This document shows, in pieces, positions 1,110 to 24,390 of a stretch of 64,000 bases of DNA (its first letter is position 1; every line of letters starts with the position of its first letter). Under the pieces are notes generated by a model. That model did not search any database and was not told where the DNA came from. It saw nothing but the letters and a program-made list of their open reading frames with translations. Origin of the DNA: Actinomycetota bacterium (GTDB lineage Bacteria > Actinomycetota > Actinomycetes > S36-B12); contig JADKGE010000003.1 in assembly GCA_016717115.1 (NCBI GenBank), positions 85,037 to 149,036 of the forward strand, read 5' to 3'. The translations under genes and the position numbers were made by a program.

Positions 1110-1515
1110 GGGGTGCTGAGGTCCAAGTCGGAAACCGGACAGTTCTACGCATGAACTCTCACCCTTTCCGTCGCCCTTTCTCCCTGTCGCTCGGTGTGCC
1201 TGAGTGTCACTCGGTGTCACGAAACCTGTTGATAGGCAACAAGTCCTCGAGGCGAATCCATGCGTTCGGGCAGTCTCGTAATGCGTAGGTCCGGGGTGGG
1301 AGGAGCGATAGCGACGGTTCCCCGAGGCGGCCCTGACTGAAAGTTGTTGGGCTGCAACGACTTTCTGCACTTCGCGGAACTCGCGCCTGCGTCGGAATTG
1401 ACCGATTTGATTCGCCCTTCCGCCCGGACCTCGAGTCGCGCCCGAATTCGGTTCGCCCTTTCCCCCCTTTGGCCGGAGTGATACGCGAGTCGATGACGTG
1501 AGGGGTTGTCACAGA
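1110..1515 (+). repeat. Structured intergenic element, copy A (left module like copy B, core and loop like copies D and E)
   Basis: Positions 1168-1290 align at about 80% with 4962-5095. Core GTCTCGTAATGCGTAGGTCCGGGG-[23 nt]-CCCCGAGGCGGCCC lies at 1273-1333, and its loop TGGGAGGAGCGATAGCGACGGTT recurs at 18958 and 24347. An 8-bp hairpin lies at 1342-1362. No consistent reading frame. Confidence 0.75.
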
Positions 1516-1639
1516 CTCGCCCGCGCCTTCCGCCAGCCACCGGGCGATCCACCGTCCGCCTGTGCCATCCAAGGATCGGTGCGATGCGGGGAGACAGTTC
1601 GCGCGGCGTTGTCACGGCGCTGTCGGGAAGGATGGGGGC

Positions 1640-2269
1640 ATGAGTGCCGCTGGCAAGCCCGTTCGGCGTGGACCGCGACGCCGAGAAGGTGCTCCGTCAG
1701 GCCCTGACGAGGTGCGCAACGCCGTTCTGGATGCGGCCGCGACCCTCTTCGCCTTGCGAGGCATCGACGGGGTCTCGCTTCGCGACGTCGCTGCCGAGGC
1801 GGATGTGAACTTGTCGCTGATTCGTCGATACATCGGAAGCCGGGACGATCTGATCGACGCCGTGTTCGCGCATGTGTCCGAGCAGCTGGCTGAGGCCGTG
1901 GCCGAGCATCCGCTGGCCGGGCAGGGGCACTCTCCGGACACGGTGATGGGCAAGTGGGTGCGCATCGGGGCGGCGCTGGCGATATCCGGCCGGCCCATGT
2001 CGTCGGATGCCATCCGCAACCCGGTGCAGGCGATCGCCGATAGCGTGGTCGCCGGCTACGGCCTGTCGACGGAGGCGGCACGGGTCCGCGCCACGCAGAT
2101 CGTGGCGACGGCGCTCGGGTGGCGCATCTTCGAGGCGTACCTGGTGGACGCTGCCGGTCTGGGCGACATACCGGTGGAGGTGCTGCGCGAGGAGCTCGTG
2201 CGCTCCGCCCGGCGACTGGGCGCGACACCGTGGCCGTCCCCTCCGGACCCGCCCGTCCTCGGCACCTGA
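1640..2269 (+). CDS. TetR/AcrR family transcriptional regulator
   Basis: ATG at 1640. The N-terminal HTH VRNAVLDAAATLFALRGIDGVSLRDVAAEADVNLSLIRRYIGSRDDL is a classic TetR_N. Confidence 0.85.
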   Translation: MSAAGKPVRRGPRRREGAPSGPDEVRNAVLDAAATLFALRGIDGVSLRDVAAEADVNLSLIRRYIGSRDDLIDAVFAHVSEQLAEAVAEHPLAGQGHSPDTVMGKWVRIGAALAISGRPMSSDAIRNPVQAIADSVVAGYGLSTEAARVRATQIVATALGWRIFEAYLVDAAGLGDIPVEVLREELVRSARRLGATPWPSPPDPPVLGT

Positions 2270-2325
2270 CACTGGACCAAAGCCCTCCTCCTTCGCCGCG
2301 CAACGGCATCGGCTCGCCCATATCG

Positions 2326-2337
2326 TTGTGTACACAA
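2326..2337. promoter_or_regulatory. Perfect 12-bp palindrome TTGTGTACACAA, candidate TetR operator in front of the DszB-like gene
   Basis: Lies in a locally AT-richer stretch between the TetR stop (2269) and the next start (2376). An overlapping CACA-N4-TGTG lies at 2333-2344. Confidence 0.4.
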
Positions 2338-2375
2338 ACGTGTGCATTAGTCGGGACGAGTGGAGGGGCACGGTC

Positions 2376-3542
2376 ATGGCGGACAAGGTCGTTGATCTGA
2401 GCACGATCGCGTTGGACTGGAACGAGGTCTACTACACCAACTGCCCGCTGGTGTCCGCGAGCAACGTGGACCAGGAACTGGGGTGGACGCGTGAGGAGTA
2501 CAAGAAGATCGGGGTGAAGTACGCGTTCCTGCGCTCGGTCCGGGAGAACAACTGGTACCCGCACTACATCCACAACCTGGACAACCTGATCCGCTTCGGC
2601 GGCCTGTTCCCGCCGGTGGCGGTGCACGCAGACATCCGCCGAACCCGACTCCTCGGGGTCACCCATGCTCCGCACGAGGGCGGCGTGATGCTGGTGCGCG
2701 CCCGCGACGACATCTACCGGATGGCCGAACTGAAGGGCAAGAAGATCGGCCTGACGAAGAGTCTCAACACGATCAAGAACGACTGGTGGCGGATCCAGGA
2801 GGAGCAGGGCATCGAGCTCATGCTCCGCGTCAACGGGATGACCCGCGACGACGTCGAGATCGTGGAGTTCCCCTACCCGGACGACTGGTACGACAACCCC
2901 GCGATGCTCGACCCGATGGAGAACCCATCCGAGCTGTGGCTCAAGCGCGACCACAAGCACGACCTCGCGTTCCGGCCGTTGGAGACCGCGCTGGAGACAG
3001 GCGTCGTCGACGCGATCTACAGCCAGAGCAAGCCCTTCCAGCACCTGCAGGAGGCCACGGGCAGGTTCAAGGCCATCGAGGACCTGTCCCGCTACCCAGA
3101 CTGGACGCTGCAGGTCGCGAACATCCCCGCCGTCATCACCTGCACCGACGTGATGGCCGAGGAGCATCCCGAGCTCGTCGTGACGTTCATGAAGGGCATG
3201 ATCAAGGTCGGCCGCTGGGCGAACGAGCACAAGCACGCCGCCGCTGCCATCCTCGACAAGCAGACCTTCTACCTCGACGTCGAGGACACCTACCGCGGCA
3301 TCAAGGACATCGACATGGTGCCGAACCTCTCCCCGCAGAACCTCGTGTCAGTCGAGATCGGCAAGGACTTCATGCTCGGCCACGGCTACATCGCCAACGA
3401 CTTCGACGTCCACGAGTGGGCGGCGCCCGAGTTCCTGGAGCAGGCGGCCCGGGACCTGCTGGAGGAGGAATGGGCGAAGCGGTCCATGTCGCGCCTGCCC
3501 GAGGGCACTGAACTGCACGCCGGCACCACCCGGCTCGGCTGA
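2376..3542 (+). CDS. DszB-like (2'-hydroxybiphenyl-2-sulfinate desulfinase family) / SsuA-NMT1-fold protein
   Basis: ATG at 2376 with GGAGGGG upstream. YYTNCPLVSAS, IRFGGLFPP, RTRLLGVT and EWAAPEFLEQ parallel DszB YSNCPVPNA, TRFGGEIPP, RTRLLGIT and QWAAPEFLNN, and the catalytic-type Cys is retained. Confidence 0.6.
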   Translation: MADKVVDLSTIALDWNEVYYTNCPLVSASNVDQELGWTREEYKKIGVKYAFLRSVRENNWYPHYIHNLDNLIRFGGLFPPVAVHADIRRTRLLGVTHAPHEGGVMLVRARDDIYRMAELKGKKIGLTKSLNTIKNDWWRIQEEQGIELMLRVNGMTRDDVEIVEFPYPDDWYDNPAMLDPMENPSELWLKRDHKHDLAFRPLETALETGVVDAIYSQSKPFQHLQEATGRFKAIEDLSRYPDWTLQVANIPAVITCTDVMAEEHPELVVTFMKGMIKVGRWANEHKHAAAAILDKQTFYLDVEDTYRGIKDIDMVPNLSPQNLVSVEIGKDFMLGHGYIANDFDVHEWAAPEFLEQAARDLLEEEWAKRSMSRLPEGTELHAGTTRLG

Positions 3543-3551
3543 GCAGAGGGA

Positions 3552-3947
3552 ATGACGATGACCACCACCGCTGCCCAGATGATCGTCGACGCCAATGCCC
3601 GCATCCCGGGGGTGACGCCGGTCGAGGCGCATGACCGCCTCGCGGCGGGTACGTGCGTCCTGCTGGACGTTCGTGAGCCCACCGAGTGGGAGACCCACAT
3701 CGTGGGGGCCGTGCAGGTGCCTCGCGGCATCCTGGAGTTCCAGGCCGACCCGACGAGTCCCCGGCACAACGCCGCACTCACCCCGGACCGTCAGGTGATC
3801 GTCTTCTGCCGGTCTGGTGCGCGGGCGGCCCTCGCGGCCGCCACGCTCACCGACCTCGGGTTCACCGACGTCTTGAACATGACCGGGGGACTCACCGCGT
3901 GGAAGGAAGCCGGCCTGCCCACGGCCGACGTCCACGCCGACATCTGA
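3552..3947 (+). CDS. Rhodanese-domain sulfurtransferase
   Basis: VLLDVREPTEWE ... VIVFCRSGARAALAAATL ... GGLTAWKEAGLP. The active-site loop is CRSGAR. Starts 10 nt after the preceding stop. Confidence 0.85.
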   Translation: MTMTTTAAQMIVDANARIPGVTPVEAHDRLAAGTCVLLDVREPTEWETHIVGAVQVPRGILEFQADPTSPRHNAALTPDRQVIVFCRSGARAALAAATLTDLGFTDVLNMTGGLTAWKEAGLPTADVHADI

Positions 3948-4419: not shown

Positions 4420-4752
4420 ATGGCTCCTCTTGACCGGATCACCCGCTCCATCGACGTGATGGGCGGGAAGCCGTGCGTGGGCCGCACCCGGGTAACGATT
4501 GGCACTGTGGTCGGCCTCGTCGCGGCGGGTACGTCGATCGCGGAGATCCTGGACGCCTACCCGTACCTGGACGAGCAGGACGCGATGCAGGCCCTCGCGT
4601 GCGCCGCTTGGCGAGTCGAGGAGATCGAGAGCCCGATGCCCCCGACCGCGAGATCCTCGAGCAGGCGCACCGCAACGGGCAGGTCATCCTCACCCAGGAC
4701 CTGGGCTTCGGCACCCCACTCGCTGTCGGGAGCCTGGCGACACCGAGCGTGA
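4420..4752 (+). CDS. DUF433 (antitoxin-like) protein; the frame runs on into the remnant of the partner gene
   Basis: GGKPCVGRTRVTIGTVVGLVAAGTSIAEILDAYPYLDEQDAMQALACAA is canonical DUF433. A native stop is expected near 4630 but is absent, so the C-terminal 40 aa are probably not native. Confidence 0.55.
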   Translation: MAPLDRITRSIDVMGGKPCVGRTRVTIGTVVGLVAAGTSIAEILDAYPYLDEQDAMQALACAAWRVEEIESPMPPTARSSSRRTATGRSSSPRTWASAPHSLSGAWRHRA

Positions 4753-4896
4753 TCCACTTCGGCGCCCAAGCGGTCCTGCCGAGGGATGTGGGCGAGCAAC
4801 TGCTCGCCGCCCTGGATGTGGCGCGCACTCACCTCGAGACCGGGTGCGCTGGTCACCGTGGATCCCATGAGGCCTCGGGCCACGGTCCTGCCCATC
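4644..4896 (+). pseudogene. DUF5615 / Mut7-C-like (PIN-type toxin partner of DUF433) remnant: N-terminally deleted and frameshifted
   Basis: Frame 1 reads REILEQAHRNGQVILTQDLGFG...SVIHF. After a +1 shift in the GGG run near 4841-4843 the next frame reads GALVTVDPMRPRATVLPI, the usual family C-terminus. There is no N-terminal 35 aa and no stop after LPI. Confidence 0.45.
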
Positions 4897-4904
4897 ACCA
4901 TGGA

Positions 4905-5200
4905 CGGTGCTCAGGCTCGGGCGGACCAGCCACGGAACGTACACATAGGTGCTCGCACTGCCCGTCGCCCTGTCTCCATGGCCCTCAGTGTCTCTGCGTG
5001 TCACTCAGTGTCACGAAACCTGTTGATAGGCAACGAATCCTGGAGGCGACCCCATGTGTGGGCGCAGTCTCCTAATGCTTATGTGCGGGGCCAAATCCCC
5101 GAGGCGGCTCCAGGCAAGACGGACATTCTGAAGGGCAACTGCCCAGGTCGTGGTGCGGGGAGGGTCGCCGTACCTGCCTGGTAGCGGCGAATTGACACTG
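4905..5200 (+). repeat. Structured intergenic element, copy B (left module like A, core and 3' modules like C)
   Basis: The core hairpin is CGGGG 5096-5100, loop CCAAAT, CCCCG 5107-5111, followed by AGGCGGCTCCAGGCAAGACGGACATTCTGAAGGGCAACTGCC. CCTGGAG 5039-5045 is complementary to CTCCAGG 5118-5124. A 3' hairpin lies at 5165-5190, then TTGACA at 5192-5197. Confidence 0.75.
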
Positions 5201-5511
5201 GGCGGGGTCAATGGGGTAGGCCAAGGTACGCGTCAGCCTTCAGGGTCCAATCCACGCGAGGCGGAACTCCGACAGCGCGACCGTCGTCAACTCGGCTCCG
5301 GTCGAGAGGAGAGGATGGACCGAACACCAACGGCAACTCTTGACTTGGCGGCAGGGGTCGGCCCACTCGCTCCTCTCCTGCAGGTTTGCCGCCATGCGGC
5401 GAGCCTTGGCCCCGCCGCGCGTACGGGGCGCACCCTGCGGGACCAGAGAAAGTCGGGCATACTGCCCGCGAAGCTGGAGACCCAGTCCGCCGAACTCGGC
5501 CGGAGGTACTC

Positions 5512-5851: not shown

Positions 5852-6073
5852 CCTCTGAGCAGGTCGCCTGGATCGCGGGGCCGAGGGCCTCGTTCCCATC
5901 TCCCGTGTCAAGAAGGTGGCATCCTCGACGTGCGATCGAACCCGAGTCCAAAAACCTAGGCACCCTCGACGTCTTCACCAGCAGTGGAGGCGGCCGGTCG
6001 CAGCGGGGTGCCGAGGGGCATACTCTGCGGCCCTGAGTGAGTTCTCGTGGCCGGAAGAGGAGGGTCGAGCCCC

Positions 6074-8359
6074 ATGAGGTTCCAGGCTTTCGTTGCCGTG
6101 ATCCGCCGGTACTGGGCGACGACACTCCTCGTGGCCATCGTGCTGGTCGCTGGAGTGGTGACCGGGGCGCTGTGGCAGGGCGTCGCAACAGGCACATCAC
6201 TCTTCGAGAACGTCGCCTACGGTCTGCCGGCGCTGCAGGCCGGTCGCTGGTGGACGTTCCTGACCGGGATGGCCTTCGCGCCGCAGCCGGTGCTGTACAT
6301 CCCGGTCCTCGTGCTCGTGGCCTGGGCGGCGAGCGTGTACGAGCGCCGCGTCGGTCACGTTCGAACCCTGGTGGTTGCCATCGGCGGCCAGGCCCTGGGC
6401 GCCCTGCTGACCGCACTGTTCTTGATGCCGTTCGACGAGAGTGGCTGGACCTGGGCACGCGACCTCGGCAACGAGTACGACCTCGGCATCTCCGCCGGTG
6501 GACTTGCCCTGGTCGGAGCGCTTACGGCTGTCATGCAGCCCATCTGGCGTACCCGCGTCCGCGTGGGAGTGTTCGCGTATCTCATCGCCATGGTGCTCAA
6601 CTCCGGGTTGCTGTGGGACGTCGAGCACGTCGTGGCGTTCACGATCGCCGTGATGGCGGGTCCCTACCTGGCGGGTCGCCGTCCGAGCAGGCCGGTGTTC
6701 AGCTTCCAGCGCCGCACCCAGCGGTCGCTCGTGGCGCTGATCATCGCGGTCACGGCAGTCACGTCAGTGATCGAAGGCATGTTCCCGGGGACGGGCGGGC
6801 CGTTCCAGTCCGAGGGCTCGGCGCAGCACTCGACAGGTTTCGGCCTGGGCTTCATCGTCGGGGCGCTCCTCCTGCTCGTACTCGCTGATGGCCTCAGGCG
6901 TGGGCGACGCGTGGCGTGGATTCTCTCGACGGCGTTGCTCCTGCTGACCCTCGCTGGGGCGATCGCCGCTGAGCCGAGTTCAGAGCGCACCGCCGACATC
7001 TTCCTGGCATCCGCTCAGCTCCTTCTTCTCCTCGTCACTGTCCGCGCGTTCAGTTCGCGCCCACAGCAGCGGGCCGTTCGCCGCCTGGGCAAGCGCGTGC
7101 TCGTCGGCGGGGGAATCCTCATCGCCTACACGGTGATCGGGGCGCTCGTCCTGCAGGACGACTTCGCCGATCAGACTCTCCTGGCCGGACTGTTCGTCGC
7201 CTCGCTCACGGTGCTGTGGGTGGGGGCACTGTTCATGCTCGTGGTGGGGCTGGTGTACTCCAGCCGCCGCCCGGAGTCCGGAGCGGATGACGACGTGCGG
7301 CTCCGCGAGTTGCTGCGCAGCAGCCCCTCCTCGAATATCGAGTGGATGCTGACCTGGAAGGGCATCTCGGTCTGGTTCTCGCGGGACGGCCAGACCGCCA
7401 TCGGGTACGAGGTCGTGGGCTCGGTGGCCCTGTGCCTCGCAGACCCCGTCGGGCACTTGGACAGACGACTGGCCGCCCTGCACGAGTTCGACGAGTACTG
7501 CTTCGCGAACGGCTGGATCCCCTGCCTCTTCGCCGCGAGCCAGGCGACCGCGGACATGGCGCCGGACCTGCGGTGGAAGGCGATCGAGGTGGCCGAGGAC
7601 AGCGTGATGTCGCTCGACAATGTCGAGTTCGCCGGGAAGTCATGGCAGGACGTGCGTACCGCGCTCAACAAGGCCGGCAAGCAAGACATCGAGCTGCTGC
7701 CCACCCAGTGGGCGGACTGCGGGCCGGTGTTCACCGACCAGTTGCGGGCCATCAGCGGCGAGTGGGTCGGTGAGAAGGCGCTGCCCGAGATGGGCTTCAC
7801 CCTCGGCACCCTGCGGGAGGCGGACGACCCGGAGGTACGCCTCAACCTGGCGGTAGGGCCGGACAAGACGGTCGAGGGGTTCACGTCATGGATGCCAGTG
7901 GCCGAGAACGGGGAGGTCGTGGGCTGGACTCTCGACCTGATGCGTCGGCGTGACACGGGGTTCAGGCCGGTGATGGAGTTCCTTATCGGCGCATCGGCAC
8001 GCCAATTCCACGAGGAGGGCTACCGTTTCATCAGCTTGTCGGCGGCTCCGCTCGCGAAGGCCCCGACGGAGCTGCAAGGCAGCAGCGACGAGCAGGTGCT
8101 GCAGAAGCTGCTGAACCTCCTGGGCACCGTCCTCGAGCCCTACTACGGATTCCAGTCGCTGTTCCGGTTCAAGGAGAAGTTCAACCCCGAGCACCGGCCG
8201 CTGTACCTCGTGTTCCCTGACGAGACCGCCCTGGCCGAGATCGGCCTGGCGGTGGCACGGGCCTACATGCCTGACGCCGGGCTCGTCGACTGGGTGCGGA
8301 TGGGCTGGGAGATGGTCGTACCGAAACACCCGGTACCCCAGTCAGGAGGCACCGCATGA
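6074..8359 (+). CDS. Aminoacyl-phosphatidylglycerol synthase (MprF C-terminal DUF2156 domain) fused to a polytopic N-terminus with a rhomboid-like segment
   Basis: The C-terminal 350 aa (IEWMLTWKGISVWFS...GWTLDLMRRRDTGFRPVMEFLI...YRFISLSAAPLA...YYGFQSLFRFKEKFNPEHRPLYLVF) match the LPG-synthase C domain. ATG at 6074 follows GGAGGG; GTG at 6047 is an alternative start. Confidence 0.75.
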   Translation: MRFQAFVAVIRRYWATTLLVAIVLVAGVVTGALWQGVATGTSLFENVAYGLPALQAGRWWTFLTGMAFAPQPVLYIPVLVLVAWAASVYERRVGHVRTLVVAIGGQALGALLTALFLMPFDESGWTWARDLGNEYDLGISAGGLALVGALTAVMQPIWRTRVRVGVFAYLIAMVLNSGLLWDVEHVVAFTIAVMAGPYLAGRRPSRPVFSFQRRTQRSLVALIIAVTAVTSVIEGMFPGTGGPFQSEGSAQHSTGFGLGFIVGALLLLVLADGLRRGRRVAWILSTALLLLTLAGAIAAEPSSERTADIFLASAQLLLLLVTVRAFSSRPQQRAVRRLGKRVLVGGGILIAYTVIGALVLQDDFADQTLLAGLFVASLTVLWVGALFMLVVGLVYSSRRPESGADDDVRLRELLRSSPSSNIEWMLTWKGISVWFSRDGQTAIGYEVVGSVALCLADPVGHLDRRLAALHEFDEYCFANGWIPCLFAASQATADMAPDLRWKAIEVAEDSVMSLDNVEFAGKSWQDVRTALNKAGKQDIELLPTQWADCGPVFTDQLRAISGEWVGEKALPEMGFTLGTLREADDPEVRLNLAVGPDKTVEGFTSWMPVAENGEVVGWTLDLMRRRDTGFRPVMEFLIGASARQFHEEGYRFISLSAAPLAKAPTELQGSSDEQVLQKLLNLLGTVLEPYYGFQSLFRFKEKFNPEHRPLYLVFPDETALAEIGLAVARAYMPDAGLVDWVRMGWEMVVPKHPVPQSGGTA

Positions 8360-9912
8360 CCGCCGAACTCGACGGCTTCGAGTTGCAGGCGGCGATCGGC
8401 TCCGCCGCGACCGCGTCCGGGCATCCGGTCCTGAACGCCGGTCGAGGACAGCCGAACTGGCTGGCCACACAGCCACGCGACGCTGCCTTCGTGCTCGGGC
8501 GCTTTGCCCTTCGCGAAGCACGTGCCTCGAGCACGCATCCCGAATGGGGAATGACCCCCAACAGCGAGGGAATCGCTGACCGCCTCGCTCGGTCACTCAG
8601 CTCGGACGAGTCGGAGGGCGCGGACTTCCTGCGCAGTGCCGTCGAGTACGGGGTCACCACGTTCGGCTTCGAGCCTGACGCGTGGGTGCACGAGCTCGCG
8701 CGGGCCGTGCTGGGCGACGGGTACCCGTCGCCCAACCGCATGTTGGCCCACATCGAGAAGGTGATGGAGCGCTACCTGGTGGAGGCCAGCGGGGCGGAGC
8801 AGGCGCCTGTCGGCACGTATCAGGTGTTCGGCACAGAGGGCGGCGCGGCCGCGATGGCCTATGTGTTCCGGTCGTTGCAGGAGAACGGAGTGATCCGGCC
8901 TGGCGACAAGGTCGCGATCGCCACGCCCGTCTTCACCCCCTACCTGCAGATTCCGGTGCTCGAGGACTTCGGGCTCGAGGTGGTGCCGATCCACGCTGCG
9001 CACAACAGCCCGTCACGGTTCACCGACGACGTACTCGACCAGCTCCTCGATCCCGAGATCAAGGTGTTCTTCCTCGTCAACCCGGGAAACCCAGACAGTC
9101 GCGCGGTCAGACCGGAACGGCTGCGCGCCCTGCGTGACCTGGTCACCGAGAACCGACCTGATCTCGTCATCGTTGCCGACACCGTCTACGCCACGTTCGT
9201 CGAGGACTTCCGGGGGATGCTGGCCGACCTGCCTCATCACGTCGTCAGCGTGCACTCATTCTCCAAGAACTTCGGTGCGACTGGTTCGCGACTTGGCTTC
9301 GTCGCACTCCACCGCGACCATGTCCTCGACCGGATCCTTGCCGGCCAGGACGAGGAAATCCGCCAGGTGCAGGCGGACCGCTACTCGTCTCTGACGTCGG
9401 ACGTCACGGCGCTGTCCTTCATGGCTCGGATGGTTGCCGACAGCCGCGAGGTGGCGCTGCACAACATCACCGGCCTGGCCACGCCCGATCAGCTTCAGAT
9501 GGCGTTCTTCGCGCTCGCGTACCTGATGCCCTCCGGGCGGTCCTACATCGCGGCGACGCGCGCCGAGCTGGCCGCGCGCGATGCCGCGCTCCGGGCTCCG
9601 CTGCAGATCCCGCCGCCTGGCGGTCAGGACAGCATGTACTACGCACTCGTCGACCTGCTGCAGGTCACCGAGGCGCTCTGCGGTCCAGGCGGAGTCGAGC
9701 GCCTGATGGCCAGTCAGACGCCGACGGCGATCCCGCTCAAGCTCGCGCAGGAGTACGGCGTGATCGTCCTGCCGGGTCAGCTCTACGGCGCGCACTCGTG
9801 GGACGTCCGCGTCTCGCTCGCCTCTCTGACCGTGGACGAACTTGGCCGCGTGGGAGCCGCGCTCGCCGCAGTGCTGACGGACATGGCAGGCCTACCGGTC
9901 CGAGGAAGGTAG
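8356..9912 (+). CDS. Aspartate 4-decarboxylase-like class I/II PLP aminotransferase
   Basis: The ATGA overlap with the preceding stop suggests translational coupling. LNAGRGQPNWLATQPRDAAF and the PLP-lysine block SFSKNFGATGSRLGF resemble the AsdA family. Confidence 0.65.
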   Translation: MTAELDGFELQAAIGSAATASGHPVLNAGRGQPNWLATQPRDAAFVLGRFALREARASSTHPEWGMTPNSEGIADRLARSLSSDESEGADFLRSAVEYGVTTFGFEPDAWVHELARAVLGDGYPSPNRMLAHIEKVMERYLVEASGAEQAPVGTYQVFGTEGGAAAMAYVFRSLQENGVIRPGDKVAIATPVFTPYLQIPVLEDFGLEVVPIHAAHNSPSRFTDDVLDQLLDPEIKVFFLVNPGNPDSRAVRPERLRALRDLVTENRPDLVIVADTVYATFVEDFRGMLADLPHHVVSVHSFSKNFGATGSRLGFVALHRDHVLDRILAGQDEEIRQVQADRYSSLTSDVTALSFMARMVADSREVALHNITGLATPDQLQMAFFALAYLMPSGRSYIAATRAELAARDAALRAPLQIPPPGGQDSMYYALVDLLQVTEALCGPGGVERLMASQTPTAIPLKLAQEYGVIVLPGQLYGAHSWDVRVSLASLTVDELGRVGAALAAVLTDMAGLPVRGR

Positions 9913-9922
9913 CCCCGGATGT

Positions 9923-11302
9923 TCAGGCGCGCGAGCGGGCGCGCTGTGCCTCCATGTGCACGTCGAACTCCTCGCGCCACGTCTCGCTAACCGCGATGCC
10001 ATTGCGCCGAGCCTCCTCGGTGCTGAGCTCGACCGGGAAGCCGTAGGTGTCGTAGAGGACGAACAGCTCGGCACCGGTGACGCCGGTGGCCCGGTGCCCC
10101 TTCAACTGCTTGATGCCCTTGCGAAGGGTCCTACGGAAGGCCTGCTCCTCCTTCGACAGCACGTCGATGACTGAGTCGGCGTGCTCGGAGACCTCGGGGA
10201 AGTGATGCGTGTAGATGCCGGAGATCGTCGGGACGATCTGGGGAAAGAAGTTCTCCTCCAGCCCGAGGTCGAACGCATACCGGGTGGCCCTGCGGATGAG
10301 CCGTCGCATGACGTAGCCCTGTGCCTTGTTGCTGGGGCGTACGCCGTCGACAGCGAGGAACGTGGCGCCGCGCAGGTGATCGGCGATGACTCGCATCGCT
10401 CGTGTCTCGTCCTCGTAGCGCTTGCCAGACAGCTCCTCGAGCTTCTCCACGATCGGCCACAGCAGCCCGATCCGGAAGACGTCGCCGGTGTTGATGGCTG
10501 CGGCGGCGATGCGGGCGAGGCCGCCGCCGTAGTCCACGTTGCGACGAGGCAGGGGCTCGAAACCGGTCTCGGTGCGTCGGTACTCCATGAAGACGGAGTT
10601 CCCCAGCTCGATGAAGCGCCCGCAGTCGCAGTTCTGGTGACAGTGTGGCCCGTAGGCTGGGTCGTGCTCGATGTCCGGGAAAAGGTAGAACACCTCGGTG
10701 TCTGGTCCGCCGGGCTCACCCACGGGCATGTCCTCTGCGGTGCCGCCGCGGCACCACCAATTCTTCTTGCCGTAGAAGGCGATGCGAGCGCCACCGGTGC
10801 CCTGCAGAGCAGCGTTCTCCTCGCTACCGAGTTCCACTTGGTCTGAGGAGATGCCAGCTGCCGTGAACAGTTCGGTCCAGATGCCTGCTGACTCGGTGTC
10901 CTTGGGAATGCCGTGGGCGGGGTCACCGATGAAGCAGGAGACGTAGATGCGCTCCGGGCTCAGTCCCACTCGCTCGGTGAGGAACGTCCAGAACTGCCTG
11001 ATCTGGACATCCTTGAAGTAGTCGCCCAGGCTCCAGCAGCCGAGCATCTCGAAGAAGGTGGTGTGACGGCTGTCGCCGACCTCCTCGATGTCCTGCACGC
11101 GCAGGCATGTCTGACTGTCGGTGAGACGCCGGCCATCGGGATGGTCCTGTCCGAGCAGGTACGGGAGGAGGGGCTGCATGCCGCTGCCCGTGAACAGGGT
11201 CGTGGGGTCATCCTTCGGAATCAGCGGAGCACGCGGGATAACCGTGTGGCCTTGCTCGGCCATGTACTCGAGAAAGGCACTGCGAATCTGATCGGCGTCC
11301 AT
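9923..11302 (-). CDS. Alanine--tRNA ligase catalytic-fragment paralog (aminoacylation plus tRNA-recognition domains only; no editing or C-Ala domain)
   Basis: From the ATG at 11302, MDADQIRSAFLEYMAEQGH...DDPTTLFTGSGMQ...HTTFFEMLGCWSLGDYFK...VIADHLRGATFL...PSNKAQGYVMRRLIRRA...LYDTYGFPVEL...MEAQRARSRA is collinear with E. coli AlaRS residues 1 to about 461 and stops there. Confidence 0.8.
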   Translation of the reverse strand: MDADQIRSAFLEYMAEQGHTVIPRAPLIPKDDPTTLFTGSGMQPLLPYLLGQDHPDGRRLTDSQTCLRVQDIEEVGDSRHTTFFEMLGCWSLGDYFKDVQIRQFWTFLTERVGLSPERIYVSCFIGDPAHGIPKDTESAGIWTELFTAAGISSDQVELGSEENAALQGTGGARIAFYGKKNWWCRGGTAEDMPVGEPGGPDTEVFYLFPDIEHDPAYGPHCHQNCDCGRFIELGNSVFMEYRRTETGFEPLPRRNVDYGGGLARIAAAAINTGDVFRIGLLWPIVEKLEELSGKRYEDETRAMRVIADHLRGATFLAVDGVRPSNKAQGYVMRRLIRRATRYAFDLGLEENFFPQIVPTISGIYTHHFPEVSEHADSVIDVLSKEEQAFRRTLRKGIKQLKGHRATGVTGAELFVLYDTYGFPVELSTEEARRNGIAVSETWREEFDVHMEAQRARSRA

Positions 11303-11660
11303 GAACCTATTCGACACTAGGCGTGGCCACCCTGTCAGACGATCCCACCACCGGCCGCCGCCGTCGTGACAATGCGTGCCCAGTTTGCGGGCTACTCGAA
11401 ACTCGACTAATCTCACGACCGATCAAGGGGGATGCGCACTTGGGGCGCCCCGCCAGGTTCAACTCCTGGGTCCTCCACAATGCGCCGCTGGCCGCCTGTG
11501 AGGCGGCCAGCGGCGTTGTTCGTAAGCATCCATGCTGGATGCCTTCTAAGTCGCATCCACTATGCGGCTCGCCGTGGGACCGCTGCACCTCGTCGACAGC
11601 CGACACCTCCCGAACGCGCACATCGAGAATGCGGTCGCAGCGCGAAGTCCTTGATATGAA
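11303..11660 (-). promoter_or_regulatory. Long structured 5' leader of the AlaRS-like gene (candidate attenuator or riboswitch-like element)
   Basis: A 13-bp perfect hairpin spans 11484-11514. GCATCC (11526), GGATGC (11537) and GCATCC (11553) allow mutually exclusive pairings. A CCAGG-N7-CCTGG hairpin lies at 11453-11469. GGGUGGCCACGCC on the minus strand lies 20-35 nt before the start. There is no convincing SD. Confidence 0.35.
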
Positions 11661-11705
11661 ACGGTTTCATGTCTGCTGGAATTGCGCGCACGCCAAGGAC
11701 CGGGC

Positions 11706-13235
11706 ATGGTTCCGCTGTTGGCTCACCCCGTCGAAGGGCTCCTCGTGCGTGGATTCCGTACCTCCCGTGTGTTCGCTTGGATCGGCGTCGGTGCTGTTGC
11801 CGCCGGCGTCCTCGTATCTGTCCCGGCTCCGGCGGCCGCCGCGTCCACCCTGCCGTGGGCGTCATGTGGCGAGGCGGGCCTGGATGCGGGGGGCTTCCAG
11901 TGCGCCACGCTTACTGTCCCGAAGGATCGCAAGAATCCCAAGGACGGCACGATCAAGCTCGCGGTCATCCGGCATCCCAGCACGGGCACACCGGAGCAGC
12001 GCATCGGCTCACTGGTGCTCAACCCGGGCGGTCCAGGCGGCGCAGGAACCGAGGTCGTCGAGCCCATCTGGGCAGCCCTGCCTGACGAGATCAAGGCCCG
12101 CTTCGACCTGGTGTCGTGGGATCCTCGCGGAGTCGGCCAGTCCACGCCGGCGCTGAAGGGCTGCGACGCGCCGTGGCCAGACCGGCCCGACACCGGCCCC
12201 GTCAACTGGGCGAAGGTCGCCACGGCGTTCCAGAAGACCCTGGCGAAGGCCAACGCCGACTGCCAGGCGAAGAACGCCGACCTCGTCCCCTTCATGGGGA
12301 CCAACGAGAACGTCGAGGACCTGGACCGGCTCCGGGCCGCGCTCGGCGACGAGAAGCTGACGTTCTGGGGTATCAGCTACGGCACGCGCATCGGATACCT
12401 GTACGCACTCAAGCATCCCGAGCGCACCCGAGCCATCATCCTCGACGGCTCCATCGATCCGGCCGGCACGACTCTGGGCTTCGCCGACGGCGGCTCGGCC
12501 TCTGATCAGGCCTTCGGAGTGTTCGCCCAGCTGTACCCCAAGGCCGCGGCCGCGATCCAGCTCTCGCTGGCGAAGCTGAACACGAAGACCGTTCCCCTGC
12601 CCAACGGCACTGAGCTCACCCGCTGGGATGTCATCGACTTCGTCTACAACGCGATCGCCCAGGAGCGGGTCTACGCGCCCATCGCCGACCAGGTCGCGGG
12701 TCTGCTCTACGCGGCGGTCTTCGGCAAGGGCGCGCAGCAGGCTGCGGCCGCCGAGGCGGCGGTCGGCGTGTTCGCCCGCCAGCCCAACGCGAACGCGGGT
12801 GGCGTCTTCTCGGTGGTCAACTGCCTGGACTACCCGGGGCGGCCGGGCCTCCAGCAGGCGATCTCTGCCATCAACACGCAGCGTCGGTACGGCCCGGTCA
12901 ACGGCGCCACCACCACGACCTCGTTCGTGCTGGGCTGCTCCGGGCTGTCGATGAAGCCGGACCCCGTCCCGCTCATCGGCGGGCAGGGTCCGGACGTCCC
13001 GCTCCTGATCCTCGGGGCGACGCGCGACGGATCGACCCCCCAGATGTGGACTGCGCGCATGTCGCGGGCGTTCCCCCAGTCCCGCACAGTGACCTACGCC
13101 GGCGGTCTGCACGGCACGTGGGTCGCGAGCAACGGGGACTGCGTGAACTCCGTCGCCAACACCTATGTCACGACGCTGGCACTGCCCGCGACGGACCTCG
13201 CCTGCCCGAACTCCTACCAGCCACCAAGCAACTAG
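11706..13235 (+). CDS. Secreted alpha/beta-hydrolase, tripeptidyl-aminopeptidase-like (S33) serine peptidase
   Basis: ATG at 11706 follows AAGGA. Signal-like N-terminus. LVLNPGGPGGAG, WDPRGVGQS and the nucleophile elbow FWGISYGT are present. Confidence 0.75.
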   Translation: MVPLLAHPVEGLLVRGFRTSRVFAWIGVGAVAAGVLVSVPAPAAAASTLPWASCGEAGLDAGGFQCATLTVPKDRKNPKDGTIKLAVIRHPSTGTPEQRIGSLVLNPGGPGGAGTEVVEPIWAALPDEIKARFDLVSWDPRGVGQSTPALKGCDAPWPDRPDTGPVNWAKVATAFQKTLAKANADCQAKNADLVPFMGTNENVEDLDRLRAALGDEKLTFWGISYGTRIGYLYALKHPERTRAIILDGSIDPAGTTLGFADGGSASDQAFGVFAQLYPKAAAAIQLSLAKLNTKTVPLPNGTELTRWDVIDFVYNAIAQERVYAPIADQVAGLLYAAVFGKGAQQAAAAEAAVGVFARQPNANAGGVFSVVNCLDYPGRPGLQQAISAINTQRRYGPVNGATTTTSFVLGCSGLSMKPDPVPLIGGQGPDVPLLILGATRDGSTPQMWTARMSRAFPQSRTVTYAGGLHGTWVASNGDCVNSVANTYVTTLALPATDLACPNSYQPPSN

Positions 13236-15383: not shown

Positions 15384-15626
15384 GCCTGTCCGGACTAGAT
15401 TCAATGGCTCTGGAGGGTTCGTCGTCCGCGCTGTCGCGTAATGCGTACGTGCGGGGTCCACATCCCCGAGGCGGCTCCAGGCAAGACGGACATACTGAAG
15501 GGCAAGTGCCCTGGTCGGGGCCGGACCAGCCGTCCGGTACGTCTCAGAGCGGGGAGCGGTGACCTTCTCCCCCGATCCAATGCGGACCGAGTCGCCGTAC
15601 ATCCGAGGTAGCGGCGAGTTGACATG
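15384..15626 (+). repeat. Structured intergenic element, copy C (B/C subtype)
   Basis: CTGGAG 15410-15415 is complementary to CTCCAG 15475-15480. The core hairpin is CGGGG 15452-15456, loop TCCACAT, CCCCG 15464-15468. A 45-nt block at 15469-15513 is about 93% identical to 5112-5156. A 3' hairpin lies at 15591-15617, then TTGACA at 15619-15624. Confidence 0.7.
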
Positions 15627-15758
15627 GGGGAATCCCCTGAGGAGGTCGCTGCGATCGAGCACGCGATCATTTCCAAGTTGATCGTGGCAGGCTTCGCCGC
15701 GGTGACCGTCACCTCGGTGATCGTCACCAGCATCATCGCGGGTGGCATCGGAGGCTGA
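15624..15758 (+). CDS. Possible 44-aa single-pass membrane peptide
   Basis: The ORF reads MGESPEEVAAIEHAIISKLIVAGFAAVTVTSVIVTSIIAGGIGG: an acidic N-terminus, one TM helix and a Gly-rich tail. Its ATG overlaps the TTGACA at the 3' edge of repeat copy C. No clear SD, so it could be leaderless. Confidence 0.3.
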   Translation: MGESPEEVAAIEHAIISKLIVAGFAAVTVTSVIVTSIIAGGIGG

Positions 15759-18854: not shown

Positions 18855-19110
18855 GGGCACCTGGGTGTCACTCAATGGCACGAGAGTCATTGATACGCAG
18901 AAGAACCCCAAGGGTGAATCCCTGCCTGGGTAGGTCTCGCAGTGCGTGGGTCCGGGGTGGGGAGGAGCGATAGCGACGGTTCCCCCCGGGCGGCCCCACA
19001 GGAAGGGGATTGCGCTGCAACGACTCTTGGCATTGCACGTTGGCAAGGTGAGCTTCGGACATAGCCGCTTGGTTTCGCCCTCGCGCCTTCCTTCGCTCTT
19101 TCCCGAGATC
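18855..19110 (+). repeat. Structured intergenic element, copy D (A/D subtype)
   Basis: GGTGTCACTC at 18864. The core GGTCTCGCAGTGCGTGGGTCCGGGG-[TGGGGAGGAGCGATAGCGACGGTT]-CCCCCCGGGCGGCCCC spans 18933-18996. CTGCAACGACT at 19015 and the TTTCGCCCT motif match copy A. Confidence 0.7.
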
Positions 19111-22050: not shown

Positions 22051-22055
22051 TGACC

Positions 22056-22490
22056 TCAGGCCTGCTTGCTCGCCACGGCTTCGGGACCCTGCTGGGCAGC
22101 GGTTGGGTCCATCCAGCCGAACTCGAGGCCGTTGCCGTCGGGATCGGTGATCCCGCGCTGGTACATGAAGCCGTAGTCCGAGGCGGGCCGCGGCTCGGAG
22201 CCGCCCGCGGCGAGACCGGCTGCGGCGGCCGCGTCGACGGCCTCGCGGCTGTCGACGAAGATGGCGACCGCCGAGGCGGGGCTCACCTTCGGGTCGCCGA
22301 GCGGAAGGTCGGTGAAGGTCTGGAAGAACTCGCGGGTCAGGATCATGATGGCGCTGTGGTCCTCTTCGACGACGACGCAGGCCGCGTTGTGGTCGGTGAA
22401 CAGAGGGTTGATGGTGAACCCGAGCGCCGTGTAGAAGGCCTTCGCCCGTTCAAGGTCCGTCACGGGCAGGCTGACGAACATCGCGGTCAT
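22056..22490 (-). CDS. VOC / glyoxalase-bleomycin resistance family protein
   Basis: ATG at 22490 follows GGAG. MFVSLPVTDLERAKAFYTALGF...GFMYQRGITDPDGNGLEF. Confidence 0.75.
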   Translation of the reverse strand: MTAMFVSLPVTDLERAKAFYTALGFTINPLFTDHNAACVVVEEDHSAIMILTREFFQTFTDLPLGDPKVSPASAVAIFVDSREAVDAAAAAGLAAGGSEPRPASDYGFMYQRGITDPDGNGLEFGWMDPTAAQQGPEAVASKQA

Positions 22491-22529
22491 GGTGGACTCC
22501 CTCTGGTGGTTCCGGCGTGGACGGGAGAA

Positions 22530-22548
22530 CACTTGCAAAAAACAAGTG
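22530..22548. promoter_or_regulatory. Inverted repeat CACTTG-N7-CAAGTG, candidate HxlR operator
   Basis: Lies 40 nt upstream of the VOC-HxlR operon start, in the only A-rich stretch (CAAAAAA) of that intergenic region. Confidence 0.35.
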
Positions 22549-22689
22549 GTGCGTCAAGACCCGAGGCTCGCCCGGCTCAGATAGCCGACGTACGGCTCAT
22601 GAGGCGGCTGCGGGTCTAGACACCTACGCCACGGCTGACGAGCTCTGGCGGATCAAGCCGTGGACAGGCACGGCAGCCTGATCGGGAAA

Positions 22690-22790
22690 CGCCTCGGGTG
22701 TGCCCCGGAACATGGCGTAGGCATGGCCGACCATGCCGGGGCAAACGGAATATGCACGGGTGAGGGCGTGTTCCCGAGTGGCTTGCGAAT
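22690..22790 (+). repeat. Candidate degenerate copy of the structured element (K)
   Basis: CCTCGGGTG...ATGGCGTAGG-[CATGGCCGACCATG insertion]-CCGGGG-[31 nt]-TTCCCGAGTGGCT has the same block order as copy A (CCTCGAGGCG...AATGCGTAGG-TCCGGGG-loop-TTCCCCGAGGCGGCC). Confidence 0.35.
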
Positions 22791-22803
22791 GGCTCCCATG
22801 CGC

Positions 22804-24267
22804 TCAATACACGGGCTTGATCCCAAAGGCGGTTGTCTTGGCACGGCTGACGTGCTTGAGCAGCTTCATGCCGTACTTGTAGAGCTGGGAATCCACCGCG
22901 CCGATAGCGTCCCTGGGGACGCCATCGATCGACTCGATGAAGTCGGCGAACGTGCCGGCCACTTTGGATAGTCGATCCTTGGCCACGAATTCGAAGGCGT
23001 CGTCGTCCGTGAGGAGATACACCGGATTGGTGATGTAGTTGACGACAGGCACGCCCGCGGCGTACCAATCGCCACCATCGGTGGGGGGATAATCGCCCAA
23101 CGGTCCCTCGGCGGGGAGGAGGACCATGCGGCTGAGTTCGTTGGTCTTGGCCGCGTCAAGGAGCAGTCCCGTCACGGTGCGGTTCATGGGCACGAACACC
23201 CCGGCCGCCTCAGCGAGTCCTGTGGGCACCAGCCGTTGCTGGTCGTCCTCGACAGCCTCGAGCGCGATGTGCTCGATGGTGATCTCAAGTGCCGTGTGCT
23301 TCACGACGTCATCTCTGTGCGACTCGATGAAGGTCCTCGTGCCCAGTGATCCGTAGAAGTGCCCCGCGGTGAGCACGACGACCAGCCTGCGCTTGAGGCC
23401 CCTCTGCTGGGCGAAGTGCCGGGCAAGTGCGAGCACCACCGCCACGCCACTGGCGTCCTCGACGGGCGAGGCGAATGGCGAGTCGTGGTGGCAGGTCAGG
23501 ACTATGGTCTCGTCGCTCGATCCCGGAATCTCGCCCACGATGTTGTGCATGGTTCCCGGCTCTCGGATGCCGGCGAGCCTCAGGCGGGCCTTGCCGTCGC
23601 CGCTCTCGGCCGCCTTGCGAAGCCACGATGCCTCGTCCCGGCCGACCCAGAACCCAGGGATGGGCTTGTCGAGGATGTCCTTCTCCCGGAAGCCATAGGG
23701 GGCGTACATGTGGCAACTTCCCCCAGGCTGGTCCTTCACGATTCCTATGAAACCCACTGCCCCCCGTTTGGCCGCCAGGTGGTAGAGGTGCCACCCGAGT
23801 CGGACCCACGTGGCGGGGTGCTTGACGAGGTCGAGGCTGCCGTCGGGATCGTACTGGCCGAGGCTGAACTTCCTGAGCAGCTTCACATCCAGGTCCGGGA
23901 AGCTGATTTCGGTGACCACGATGGCTCCGTTCCAGTCGGCCCGATGCCAGAGTGTGGCCGGGTCGGCGAAGACCAGTCGAGCTTCTCGGCCTTCTGGCGG
24001 CGTAAACGCCGAGTAGGGGATGGGGAACGAGTCCACCTGCTCGAAGCCCGAGCCCGCGTCGATTTCGACCGAGTGCGTCTCCGCGGCCCAGTGGGTGATG
24101 GGGATGGCCTCCCGACGAACCTTCTCGAGCCCGAAATCGCGCAGGTGCGCCTCGATGTAGTCCTCGTTCTGCCGATCCGCCGCACTTCCCGCGCGGCGAG
24201 CACCCATGTTCGCCTGATCCCTGATCCACTGGAACATTTCTTCGTTGTCGAACCGGTCGCTGGGCAT
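22804..24267 (-). CDS. M28-family metallopeptidase with PA domain
   Basis: ATG at 24267 lies 5 nt after GAGGAG. ...HHDSPFASPVEDASGVAVVLALARHF...LTAGHFYGSLGTRTFI is a typical M28 arrangement. Confidence 0.65.
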   Translation of the reverse strand: MPSDRFDNEEMFQWIRDQANMGARRAGSAADRQNEDYIEAHLRDFGLEKVRREAIPITHWAAETHSVEIDAGSGFEQVDSFPIPYSAFTPPEGREARLVFADPATLWHRADWNGAIVVTEISFPDLDVKLLRKFSLGQYDPDGSLDLVKHPATWVRLGWHLYHLAAKRGAVGFIGIVKDQPGGSCHMYAPYGFREKDILDKPIPGFWVGRDEASWLRKAAESGDGKARLRLAGIREPGTMHNIVGEIPGSSDETIVLTCHHDSPFASPVEDASGVAVVLALARHFAQQRGLKRRLVVVLTAGHFYGSLGTRTFIESHRDDVVKHTALEITIEHIALEAVEDDQQRLVPTGLAEAAGVFVPMNRTVTGLLLDAAKTNELSRMVLLPAEGPLGDYPPTDGGDWYAAGVPVVNYITNPVYLLTDDDAFEFVAKDRLSKVAGTFADFIESIDGVPRDAIGAVDSQLYKYGMKLLKHVSRAKTTAFGIKPVY

Positions 24268-24324
24268 GGCCGCTCCTCGCATGGTTGCCGTGACTCTCGT
24301 CGGGCCCCAGCCCAGACCATAGCC

Positions 24325-24390
24325 GCCGAGTGACGCGCCCGCGGGGTGAGGAGGAGCGCAGCGACGGTTTCCCGAGACGGCTCCACACTA
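24325..24390 (+). repeat. Structured intergenic element, copy E (core only, A/D-type loop)
   Basis: CGGGGTGAGGAGGAGCGCAGCGACGGTTTCCCGAGACGGCT (24342-24382) aligns with copy A 1292-1332 at about 36 of 41 positions. The stem-closing CCCCG is TCCCG here (G-U wobble). It lies between two minus-strand genes. Confidence 0.6.

Follow-up and report, generated by a model that had tools for sequence, protein, structure and literature searches.

Partial tRNA-Thr genes as probable decayed attachment sites of integrative elements in an Actinomycetota island array

Introduction

The closest described counterparts of the locus analysed here are the attL and attR sites of islands and prophages integrated at tRNA genes. 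Sublocation classes of tRNA integration sites are said to have been set out by Williams in 2002, and tyrosine integrases recombine double-stranded DNA. The repeat copies in our window (by which we mean the whole stretch of DNA that was analysed, 64 kb in length) resemble such sites in that the copied portion begins in the anticodon loop of a tRNA and extends to its 3′ end, always in the same orientation, in that an integrase adjoins the core in intact examples, and in that repeats are found in the arms on both sides. Unlike them, the window holds neither an integrase nor an intact tRNA, and it contains six junctions within 24 kb. A similar likeness is seen with actinobacteriophages whose attP overlies tRNA-Thr, and the Mycobacterium phages Phayonce and Purky have the same 41–45-nt core at 84–90% identity. 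These phages reportedly show integration-dependent immunity, an account of which is attributed to Broussard et al. in 2013; their core lies inside the immunity repressor gene, whereas that of the window is intergenic, in a setting where no phage genes were observed.

Cis-mobilizable elements (CIMEs), known from ICE/IME biology, have lost their integration genes but kept their att sites, and can be stacked through tandem accretion, that is, by successive insertions at one target (PMC5704250). Like CIMEs as defined in that work, the five segments of the window are flanked by cores and lack a recombinase; unlike those of Firmicutes ICEs, for which cis-mobilisation has been demonstrated, the window sites look decayed and are putative remnants, with no conjugation genes seen. 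Tycheposon-shaped islands of Prochlorococcus lie beside tRNA genes and are built by repeated integration (bioRxiv 10.1101/2020.12.28.424599). The locus studied here would share with them a tRNA-linked repeated integration, but in another phylum and at another tRNA, and the hallmark integrase clade and replication module of tycheposons are absent from the window. Chromosomal integron arrays likewise consist of co-oriented, small, promoter-poor modules that each end in a recombination site and frequently encode toxin-antitoxin (TA) modules. They differ in that the window has no IntI, attI or attC architecture, the site being a tRNA half and the integrases phage-type enzymes acting on double-stranded DNA, and the likeness to integrons is an analogy only.

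Results

The first-pass annotation had described five segments sharing an ordered core, all on the + strand and all between likely genes, and their positions (copies A to E at 1110–1515, 4905–5200, 15384–15626, 18855–19110 and 24325–24390), strand and placement were confirmed. A repeat search returned the core in four copies as repeat D3 (1263–1297, 5057–5091, 15423–15457 and 18924–18958; 71–83% identity to the reference copy), and the core pattern AATGCNTANGTNCGGGGN{4,30}CCCCGAGGCGG matched A, B and C, with 0.00 matches expected in shuffles. The modular flanks described earlier were also recovered, namely the left module common to A and B (D1, 139 nt, 81% identity), the right block and 3′ hairpin common to B and C (D7, 67 nt, 91%; D13, 49 nt, 78%) and the loop common to A, D and E, which reads GGAGGAGCGATAGCGACGGTT in both A and D and has the close variant GAGGAGGAGCGCAGCGACGGTTT in E; the A/D loop and right side form repeat D12 (51 nt, 78%). 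A sixth and badly decayed copy, F, is present at approximately 22795–22836 (+), where it overlaps the 3′ end of an M28 peptidase gene, and was detected because its left flank (22633–22794) matches the flanks of cores in L029, L089, L094 and L110 (loci outside the window are given as L-numbers). Searching 24.4–64 kb with a profile of the tRNA-derived core gave no additional copy.

The family had been left unclassified, a view that can now be set aside: sequence comparison identifies the repeat core as positions 32–76 of tRNA-Thr(CGT), a 3′ portion whose first nucleotide is also the first of the anticodon loop and whose last three are the CCA. Scanning one genome per species with the core pattern gave 126 matches at 117 loci. 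Intact tRNA-Thr genes called by ARAGORN account for 77 of the 126 matches (73 CGT and 4 TGT), and the other 49 are partial copies. A profile built from tRNA halves found A, B and C at E = 6e-10, 2e-8 and 2e-11. When the 49 partial copies are compared with the tRNA, at least 98% identity holds for C32 and everything 3′ of it, against 41–55% for the five bases on its 5′ side; homology to tRNA-Thr ends sharply at position 32, in the anticodon loop.

ARAGORN called no intact tRNA-Thr gene in the window, and none was found in the further ~0.8 kb upstream that is covered by contigs of the same species. In the search for an anchoring tRNA gene, looking up the YCII protein by exact match led to no contig longer than 3.3 kb, a metagenome scan with the HPP protein gave one 2-kb contig and one distant match, and six look-ups of YCII homologues placed the gene in unrelated contexts, with cores only in L129. 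Since neither the window nor the ~0.8 kb upstream of it holds an intact tRNA-Thr, we infer the anchoring of the array at a tRNA gene from relatives: in L008, L013 and L022 an intact tRNA-Thr is followed by partial copies, and a comparable gene would be expected upstream of the window.

In copy A, a type 1 left arm of element-side, P-arm-like sequence (1105–1274, +) contains TCGCCCTTTCC-like repeats at 1159 and 1171 and GTGTCAC at 1203 and 1213, spaced 10 bp, and shows 79–83% identity to the sequence that precedes cores in L029, L050, L089, L016 and L129. The core (1275–1333, +; profile E = 5.7e-10) retains positions 32–53 of tRNA-Thr(CGT) intact (22/22), after which the T-loop is replaced by 23 nt (1297–1319) and the 3′ T-stem and acceptor strand follow (12/16). 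Its right arm (1334–1515, +), which we take to be the left (P′-side) terminus of the element that follows, has a hairpin, GAAAGTTGTTG..CAACGACTTTC, at 1339–1366 and TCGCCCTT repeats at 1412 and 1453. This type of hairpin also occurs 3′ of cores, intact tRNAs included, in L027, L029, L030, L045, L050, L077, L081 and L129.

The left arm of copy B is again type 1 (4905–5068, +), with 83% identity to A over 107 nt and 73–77% to L029, L050, L016 and L089, and its core (5069–5112, +; E = 2.2e-8) spans tRNA-Thr positions 32–76 including TCCA (18/22 and 16/16) with a 7-nt T-loop. The right arm of B (5113–5215, +; repeats D7 and D13) is common to copy C, in which it has ~60 nt inserted (15480–15630, +; D7, D13), and the beginning of the C arm is also found 3′ of a core in L116; the C core (15435–15479, +; E = 1.8e-11) has 18/22 and 16/16 matches and a 7-nt T-loop. 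Copy D combines a diverged type 1 left arm (18855–18935, +; GGTGTCACTCAATGGCAC..TTGATACGCAG), a core (18936–18998, +; 19/22 and 14/16) with the T-loop replaced at 18958–18981, and a right arm (18999–19110, +; D12) in which hairpin type 1 is followed by TCGC.CTTTCC repeats at 19081 and 19093. The type 3 left arm of copy F (22633–22794, +) opens with what is left of a HigA-like HTH antitoxin gene, its ~17 3′-terminal codons (..ADELWRIKPWTGTAA and stop), and is 78–84% identical to L029, L089, L094 and L110, in each of which it lies directly against a core; the heavily decayed core of F itself (CTCCCATGCGCTCAATACACGGGCTTGATCCCAAAGGCGG; 22795–22836, +) is placed by positional homology with the L029 core and has 9/16 of the 3′ part left. 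Copy E (24342–24385, +) is without the anticodon part, having only the T-arm with replaced loop, the acceptor strand and TCCA (14/16). Two other origins for these sequences were considered and rejected. Local segmental duplication does not suit copies whose flanks differ and whose core matches tRNA genes across the phylum, and for left arms acting as a tRNA-like 5′ half that pairs with the acceptor strand ARAGORN returned nothing, arm/core complementarity being limited to one 10-bp inverted repeat (TCTACGCAT/ATGCGTAGG).

The 23-nt T-loop replacement is conserved in 13 partial copies, whose flanks differ, and occurs in 0 intact tRNAs, and a scan of IMG/VR for the variant gave 0 matches. It is not predicted by simple decay and counts against the explanation that we favour below; with an attP of replaced T-loop and a crossover in the anticodon loop, the rebuilt tRNA would be wrecked. 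A C at the discriminator position associates with hairpin type 1 (8/13 vs 6/117, Fisher p = 2e-6), the two intact tRNAs L077 and L081 being included, and the right flank and the 3′ tip of the core move together.

In at least nine relatives a tyrosine integrase is encoded downstream of the core, 20–300 bp away. PF00589 proteins adjoin the core in L045, L084, L100 and L012 (E = 9e-12 to 5e-24), and homologues occur in L002, L008, L010, L020, L038, L048, L049 and L094. In the viral contig L126 an integrase (1447–2505) is followed by a partial core (2681–2715) flanked on both sides by TCAAGGGTGTACGAAAGGGyGTACT, and this combination of integrase, core and arm repeats is, judged from its sequence, an attP. 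Core matches are co-oriented in 18 of 18 multi-hit loci (17 of 17 when L088, with its two real tRNA genes, is left out) and in all six window copies. Similarity between the window and L050, L089, L029 and L129 stops at the core, two modules (YCII and DUF433/DUF5615) are in opposite order in L129 compared with the window, on the same strand, and the gene content bounded by core sites varies between related genomes. Arm repeats are present on either side of the core; taken by itself, the GGTGTCAC motif shows no enrichment in the window, and only the 10-bp-spaced pairs in the arms are notable. Taking together the integrase next to the core, the co-orientation and the break in synteny at cores, we therefore interpret the flanks as element arms. 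Because an integrase is found only beside the cores of relatives and of the viral contig, the window copies are classed as remnants and not as intact elements.

The copies bound five cargo segments (1336–24341), in which Pfam annotation gave no recombinase. Segment 1 encodes TetR, a solute-binding protein, rhodanese and SHOCT; segment 2 DUF4333, an MprF-like protein, an aminotransferase, an AlaRS-like protein, a hydrolase and a TPR protein; segment 3 YCII, DUF2568 and DUF4386; segment 4 a metallophosphoesterase, GNAT, HxlR and glyoxalase; and segment 5 the M28 peptidase. A DUF433/DUF5615 TA-like pair (4420–4904, +; Pfam) lies at the right-hand edge of the segment terminated by copy B, and a homologous block stands immediately upstream of cores in L089 and L129. 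Compared with L129, the window DUF5615 has a shifted reading frame and has lost its stop codon. All but the ~17 last codons of the HigA-like gene at copy F have been deleted; its counterpart in L029 is an HTH_3 gene adjoining HigB. Arm identity is 79% against 75% at third codon positions in one comparison and 65% against 74% in another, which gives no sign of selective constraint on the arms, and the junctions appear to be decaying at about the neutral (synonymous) rate. No integrase or transposase was found in the 64-kb window, as the first-pass annotation had stated, and tblastn with 12 tRNA-Thr-adjacent integrases gave nothing below E = 0.07, which is noise only. The segments have a G+C of 0.65–0.67 compared with 0.67–0.68 for the host, which is no anomaly, and there is therefore no compositional sign of recent import. 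That the window is without an intact tRNA-Thr and without a detectable integrase remnant, and that its segments have host-like G+C, are observations that weigh against the explanation favoured below.

Discussion

We consider it probable, at roughly 85%, that the six copies are partial tRNA-Thr(CGT) genes left as att-site scars by tyrosine-integrase elements that inserted successively. As the core is the 3′ half of tRNA-Thr(CGT), the copies are best understood as attachment-site remnants of such elements, and the strict strand bias would result from directional insertion into one tRNA gene. The attP of an element would consist of two arms, left and right, with a tRNA copy spanning anticodon loop to CCA between them. 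Recombination within that loop would allow the element's copy to rebuild the tRNA, pushing the former 3′ half downstream, and, since the tRNA 3′ half carried by attP would be displaced at each insertion, repeated insertion would build a tandem array, always in the orientation of the tRNA gene. Each junction would then comprise the right end of the element on its left, the tRNA 3′ half and the left end of the element on its right, and the modules of the first-pass annotation would be element ends. In the window the integrases would have been lost and some cargo truncated, leaving a fossil island array of ~24 kb with accessory genes. We infer the exact crossover point, and the arm repeats are putative binding sites for an integrase or excisionase. 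Decayed att sites in a tandem array of integrative elements are an already known kind of feature, not a new RNA or repeat family.

The att-site origin is common to a second reading, which differs solely in present activity: small integrase-less modules would be shuffled by a tRNA-Thr-specific tyrosine integrase acting in trans from another place in the genome, each module ending in a conserved arm and half-site and being excised and re-inserted, cis-mobilizable in the manner of integron cassettes. The modules between cores in relatives are indeed small (1.1–4 kb), lack an integrase and are rich in TA genes (HigBA, AbiEii, Phd/YefM, DUF433/DUF5615). The order swap between the window and L129, the attachment of the same arm types to different cargo and the conservation of the T-loop variant across MAGs also point this way. 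However, arms diverge no slower than third codon positions between syntenic relatives, cores in the window carry 3–4 substitutions in the 22-nt 5′ part and that of F is almost erased. Junction A is also the same in five same-species contigs from different samples (98.9–99.9% identity), and no integrase is encoded in the 64 kb. We therefore regard a live platform of this kind as unlikely.

It is far less credible that the copies are genes or leaders of a structured, tRNA-like ncRNA family transcribed from the + strand. The copies are intergenic and co-oriented, and the alignment predicts a T-arm hairpin together with small hairpins, but the sole invariant helix there is the inherited T-stem, and no cloverleaf is possible because the tRNA 5′ half is missing. 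The downstream genes are unrelated, and E sits between two minus-strand genes. An Rfam search of the whole region and of the stretches around B and C gave no match at the gathering threshold or at E ≤ 10; such a search is blind to the identity of the core, since half a tRNA receives no score from the generic tRNA model. Folding energies are no better than those of shuffles (z-scores of −0.28 for A and +0.26 for B), and the RNAalifold covariation term is unfavourable (+1.86), with low power from only eight alignable sequences. The suggestion of a transcribed RNA family does not survive these results. The first-pass annotation had left open an old mobile element or a constrained RNA or ssDNA structure, and of these the mobile-element origin is upheld and RNA structure and single-strand mobilisation are not. 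The weakest reading, in which REP/RAYT-type or IS200/IS605-derived palindromes (IS200/IS605-PATE among them) moved as single strands and so gave the strand bias, has only that bias and the hairpins in its favour and is scarcely believable, given a common core that is a tRNA half and not a REP palindrome, copies in relatives that adjoin tyrosine integrases, one copy per junction with no clustered inverted pairs, and no Y1 transposase (Y1_Tnp), TnpB or other transposase domain in the scanned window ORFs.

Taking the copies as scars of tRNA-targeted elements helps annotation, in that the first 24.4 kb of the window is an accessory island array whose TA remnant, MprF-like lipid-modification cluster and several regulators are cargo and not core genome, and half-tRNAs of this sort are not flagged by the Rfam tRNA model. 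There is a slim chance that, in Actinomycetota of freshwater and wastewater, tRNA-Thr half-sites define a cassette system resembling that of integrons, with the tRNA-Thr integrase acting in trans. If this is the case, small integrase-less modules, often only a TA pair, would end in a conserved arm and half-site, and the T-loop replacement would mark sites that recombine mutually, never rebuilding or damaging a real tRNA gene. The wider interest lies in a conserved non-tRNA T-loop variant that is confined to partial copies, and in the recurrence of integrase-less, TA-rich mini-modules between tRNA-Thr half-sites in many uncultured Actinomycetota.

Results

Scanning species-representative genomes once for the core pattern gave at least 117 loci, nearly all from Actinomycetota; the full sequence around the listed matches reads GCCGCCTTAGCTCAG..GAGCrACGCACTCGTAATGCGTAGGTCCGGGGTTCrAwTCCCCGAGGCGGCTCCA. 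According to ARAGORN, intact tRNA-Thr genes account for 77 of the 126 matches listed (anticodon CGT in 73, TGT in 4), with the other 49 being partial copies that lack the 5' half. Because the listed matches fall in tRNA-Thr genes or partial copies of them, the core in the window is the 3' part of tRNA-Thr(CGT), starting at position 32, where the anticodon loop begins, and running through CCA. Its parts are the anticodon loop (CTCGTAA), the 3' strand of the anticodon stem (TGCGT), the variable loop (AGGTC), the T-arm (CGGGG-loop-CCCCG), the acceptor strand (AGGCGGC) and the 3' tip (N-CCA). Comparison with relatives has given an identity to elements that the first-pass annotation had called unclassified.

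The five intergenic segments with a common core described there were all recovered in place by a repeat search, and every copy does lie on the + strand between probable genes, as judged from the ORFs and Pfam matches of the window. The core recurs in four copies (repeat D3), and its pattern matches copies A (1275-1333), B (5069-5112) and C (15435-15479), where shuffled sequence gives an expectation of zero; copy E (24342-24385) holds the distal part only. A profile built from tRNA halves alone finds A, B and C (E = 6e-10, 2e-8 and 2e-11, respectively) and no new copy in the rest of the window. Identity to the tRNA in the 5' and 3' parts is 22/22 and 12/16 for A, 18/22 and 16/16 for both B and C, and 19/22 and 14/16 for D (18936-18998), whilst E lacks the 5' part and matches at 14/16 in the 3' part. 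A sixth copy, F (22795-22836, + strand), has a badly eroded core and was recognised from its flank: 22633-22794 is 78-84% identical to sequence abutting cores in four loci from relatives (L029, L089, L094 and L110). The L029 counterpart stands after a HigB/HigA pair, and in the window the last ~17 codons of a HigA-type antitoxin gene are left, truncated at copy F. There is no tRNA gene within the 64-kb window, and an anchoring tRNA-Thr gene was seen neither there nor in the same-species or homologue-bearing contigs looked up.

The partial copies share a sharp edge. From C32 onward the 49 listed copies match the tRNA at 98% identity or more, against 41-55% directly 5' of it, which is the hallmark of site-specific recombination within the anticodon loop, although the exact crossover point is one that we infer. 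For tyrosine integrases, a 7-nt loop flanked by an inverted stem is reportedly a typical overlap region with core-binding sites, a view ascribed to Williams in 2002. Four loci (L045, L084, L100 and L012) encode phage-integrase-family proteins at a distance of 20-300 bp on the 3' side of the core, and homologues occur in eight further loci among the matches listed. On a viral contig (L126) an integrase is followed by a partial core flanked left and right by copies of one 25-nt repeat, which is the classical attP layout, and the core also occurs in mycobacteriophages, at 84-90% identity. In the Mycobacterium phages Phayonce and Purky the gene annotated as the immunity repressor contains a tRNA-Thr-like core (NC_028796.1 29074-29117; NC_051739.1 29807-29847).

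Where a locus among the matches listed has two or more core matches, these lie on one strand in 18/18 cases, or 17/17 once a locus made up of two tRNA genes only (L088) is set aside, with related sequences counted as independent. On the same assumption, the chance of such co-orientation (20 extra copies) would be ~1e-6. A discriminator C goes with the hairpin GAAAGTTGTTG..CAACAACTTTC (8/13 vs 6/117, p = 2e-6, related sequences again being counted as independent); two intact tRNAs have both, and their 3' ends are therefore element-derived. Similarity of the window to four relatives' loci (L050, L089, L029 and L129) reaches the core and ends there. In the arms of A and D, TCGCCCTTTCC-like repeats flank the core on both sides, and GTGTCAC pairs with 10-bp spacing also occur in the arms; by analogy with lambda-type attP, these repeats are putative arm-type binding sites.

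In a tandem array, each junction would consist of the right end of the left element, the core and the left end of the right element, and the modules of the window can be assigned on this basis. The left module of A and B (139 nt, 81% identity; D1), also present at 73-83% identity in L016, L029, L050, L089 and L129, is a right-end arm, type 1. A and D have the loop and right side in common (D12), and the hairpin behind them, found behind intact tRNAs in L045, L077 and L081 as well, is a left-end arm. Another left-end arm type is represented by the right block common to B and C (67 nt, 91%; D7), which also share the 3' hairpin region (D13). L016 and L089 belong to a single contig, CAVVOF010000004.1, whose 880-930 kb stretch has a parallel array of at least four co-oriented cores in 22 kb, with modules that are partly those of the window. 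Mini-modules between half-sites in relatives (L022, L029, L044 and L094), some of them just 1.1-1.8 kb from core to core, hold mostly toxin-antitoxin or abortive-infection genes, namely HigB/HigA with SnoaL, AbiEii twice and Phd/YefM.

Two relatives show related features. L131 has two co-oriented partial copies (1977-2019 and 5962-6000) of another tRNA 3' half (GGCTTCTAATCCGTAGGTTCGGGGTTCGAGCCCCCGG), each preceded by a similar flank; its anticodon loop reads like Arg-TCT, and this is a scar array of the same type built on a different tRNA. In L129, a lone fragment like the middle of the tRNA (GGAGCAACGCACGTTTGATGCGTAGGTCCGG, 2270-2300) lies 250 nt downstream from a core and may be what is left of an earlier tRNA copy that was disrupted.

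A conserved replacement, T-GGGGAGGAGCGCAGCGACGG-TT, stands in place of the 7-nt T-loop in 13 partial copies, counting the matches listed and the window. The carriers are A, D and E in the window (23-24 nt; 1297-1319, 18958-18981 and 24347-24369) and L022, L027, L038, L044 (twice), L074, L089, L094 (twice) and L110; no intact tRNA among the matches listed has the replacement, and IMG/VR gave no match to it. It is independent of arm type, with differing arms on either side, and like-flanked sites may differ in their T-loop (L096 vs L110; window A vs the syntenic L050 site). Cores in L053, L056, L069 and L098 are followed by a related unit that lacks the anticodon part.

The cargo of the window array consists of accessory genes. 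Pfam assigns TetR, solute-binding protein, rhodanese, SHOCT, DUF433/DUF5615, DUF4333, an MprF-like protein with an aminotransferase, an AlaRS-like paralogue, a hydrolase, a TPR protein, YCII, DUF2568, DUF4386, metallophosphoesterase, GNAT, HxlR, glyoxalase and M28 peptidase. Within this cargo, 6047-13235 looks like an aminoacyl-lipid module: an MprF-like protein (LPG_synthase_C, 770 aa), a class I/II aminotransferase (518 aa), an alanyl-tRNA synthetase catalytic-domain paralogue (497 aa, minus strand) and an alpha/beta hydrolase (517 aa). The YCII-family gene at 775-1092 (105 aa), immediately upstream of copy A, has homologues in relatives at 76-89% identity in unrelated neighbourhoods and is itself a wandering accessory gene. 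A 77-nt direct repeat (83% identity; D6) has one copy at 40415-40491 and one at 59946-60022; one is intragenic, and the other, with a stop codon, immediately precedes the 60038-61342 ORF.

Discussion

We consider it probable, at about 85%, that the copies are attachment-site scars of integrative elements, a reading on which seven lines of evidence converge. The origin and conservation of the T-loop replacement are not explained by it; gene conversion among array copies could have spread the replacement.

The main alternative, an array whose cis-mobilizable cassettes remain active, strikes us as unlikely. It draws on the small, integrase-free and toxin-antitoxin-rich modules of relatives and on a module order in the window unlike that of L129. 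In the window itself, Pfam assigned no recombinase to the ORFs, and tblastn with 12 integrase queries gave no match below E=0.07. Signs of decay include substitutions in the cores, the truncated HigA gene and a DUF5615 (PIN-like) gene at 4581-4905 which, compared with L129, is frameshifted by a 1-nt insertion following ..THLETG and has lost its stop codon through a TAG>CAG change; this gene, part of a toxin-antitoxin-like pair, has probably become a pseudogene. Between syntenic relatives, the arms show no more conservation than third codon positions do (79% vs 75% against L050, 65% vs 74% against L089), and the G+C of the array is like that of the host. The same junction A recurs in five same-species contigs from other samples (98.9-99.9% identity), and two wastewater samples, ERZ2624663 and ERZ27280351, contain the organism at >99% identity.

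A structured RNA family, one of the options first raised, is very improbable: Rfam gave no match on the window region, short stretches included, at gathering thresholds or at E<=10, folding energy equals that of shuffles (z = -0.28 and +0.26), and RNAalifold, with an unfavourable covariation term, recovers no helix beyond small hairpins and the T-stem inherited from the tRNA, at the low power of eight alignable sequences. The least credible suggestion, single-strand mobilisation of the REP/RAYT or PATE kind, has no support beyond a strand bias that already follows from directional integration.

Read as attachment-site scars, the window array is an instance of a known phenomenon, in which partial-tRNA repeats are left by integrative elements and stacked through tandem accretion. 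Cis-mobilizable elements (CIMEs; PMC5704250) have the same structure as the integrase-less segments of the window, and the overall picture agrees with that of Prochlorococcus islands, where scattered partial tRNAs have been interpreted as older integrations (bioRxiv 10.1101/2020.12.28.424599). What is added here is the tRNA-Thr(CGT) case in uncultured Actinomycetota.
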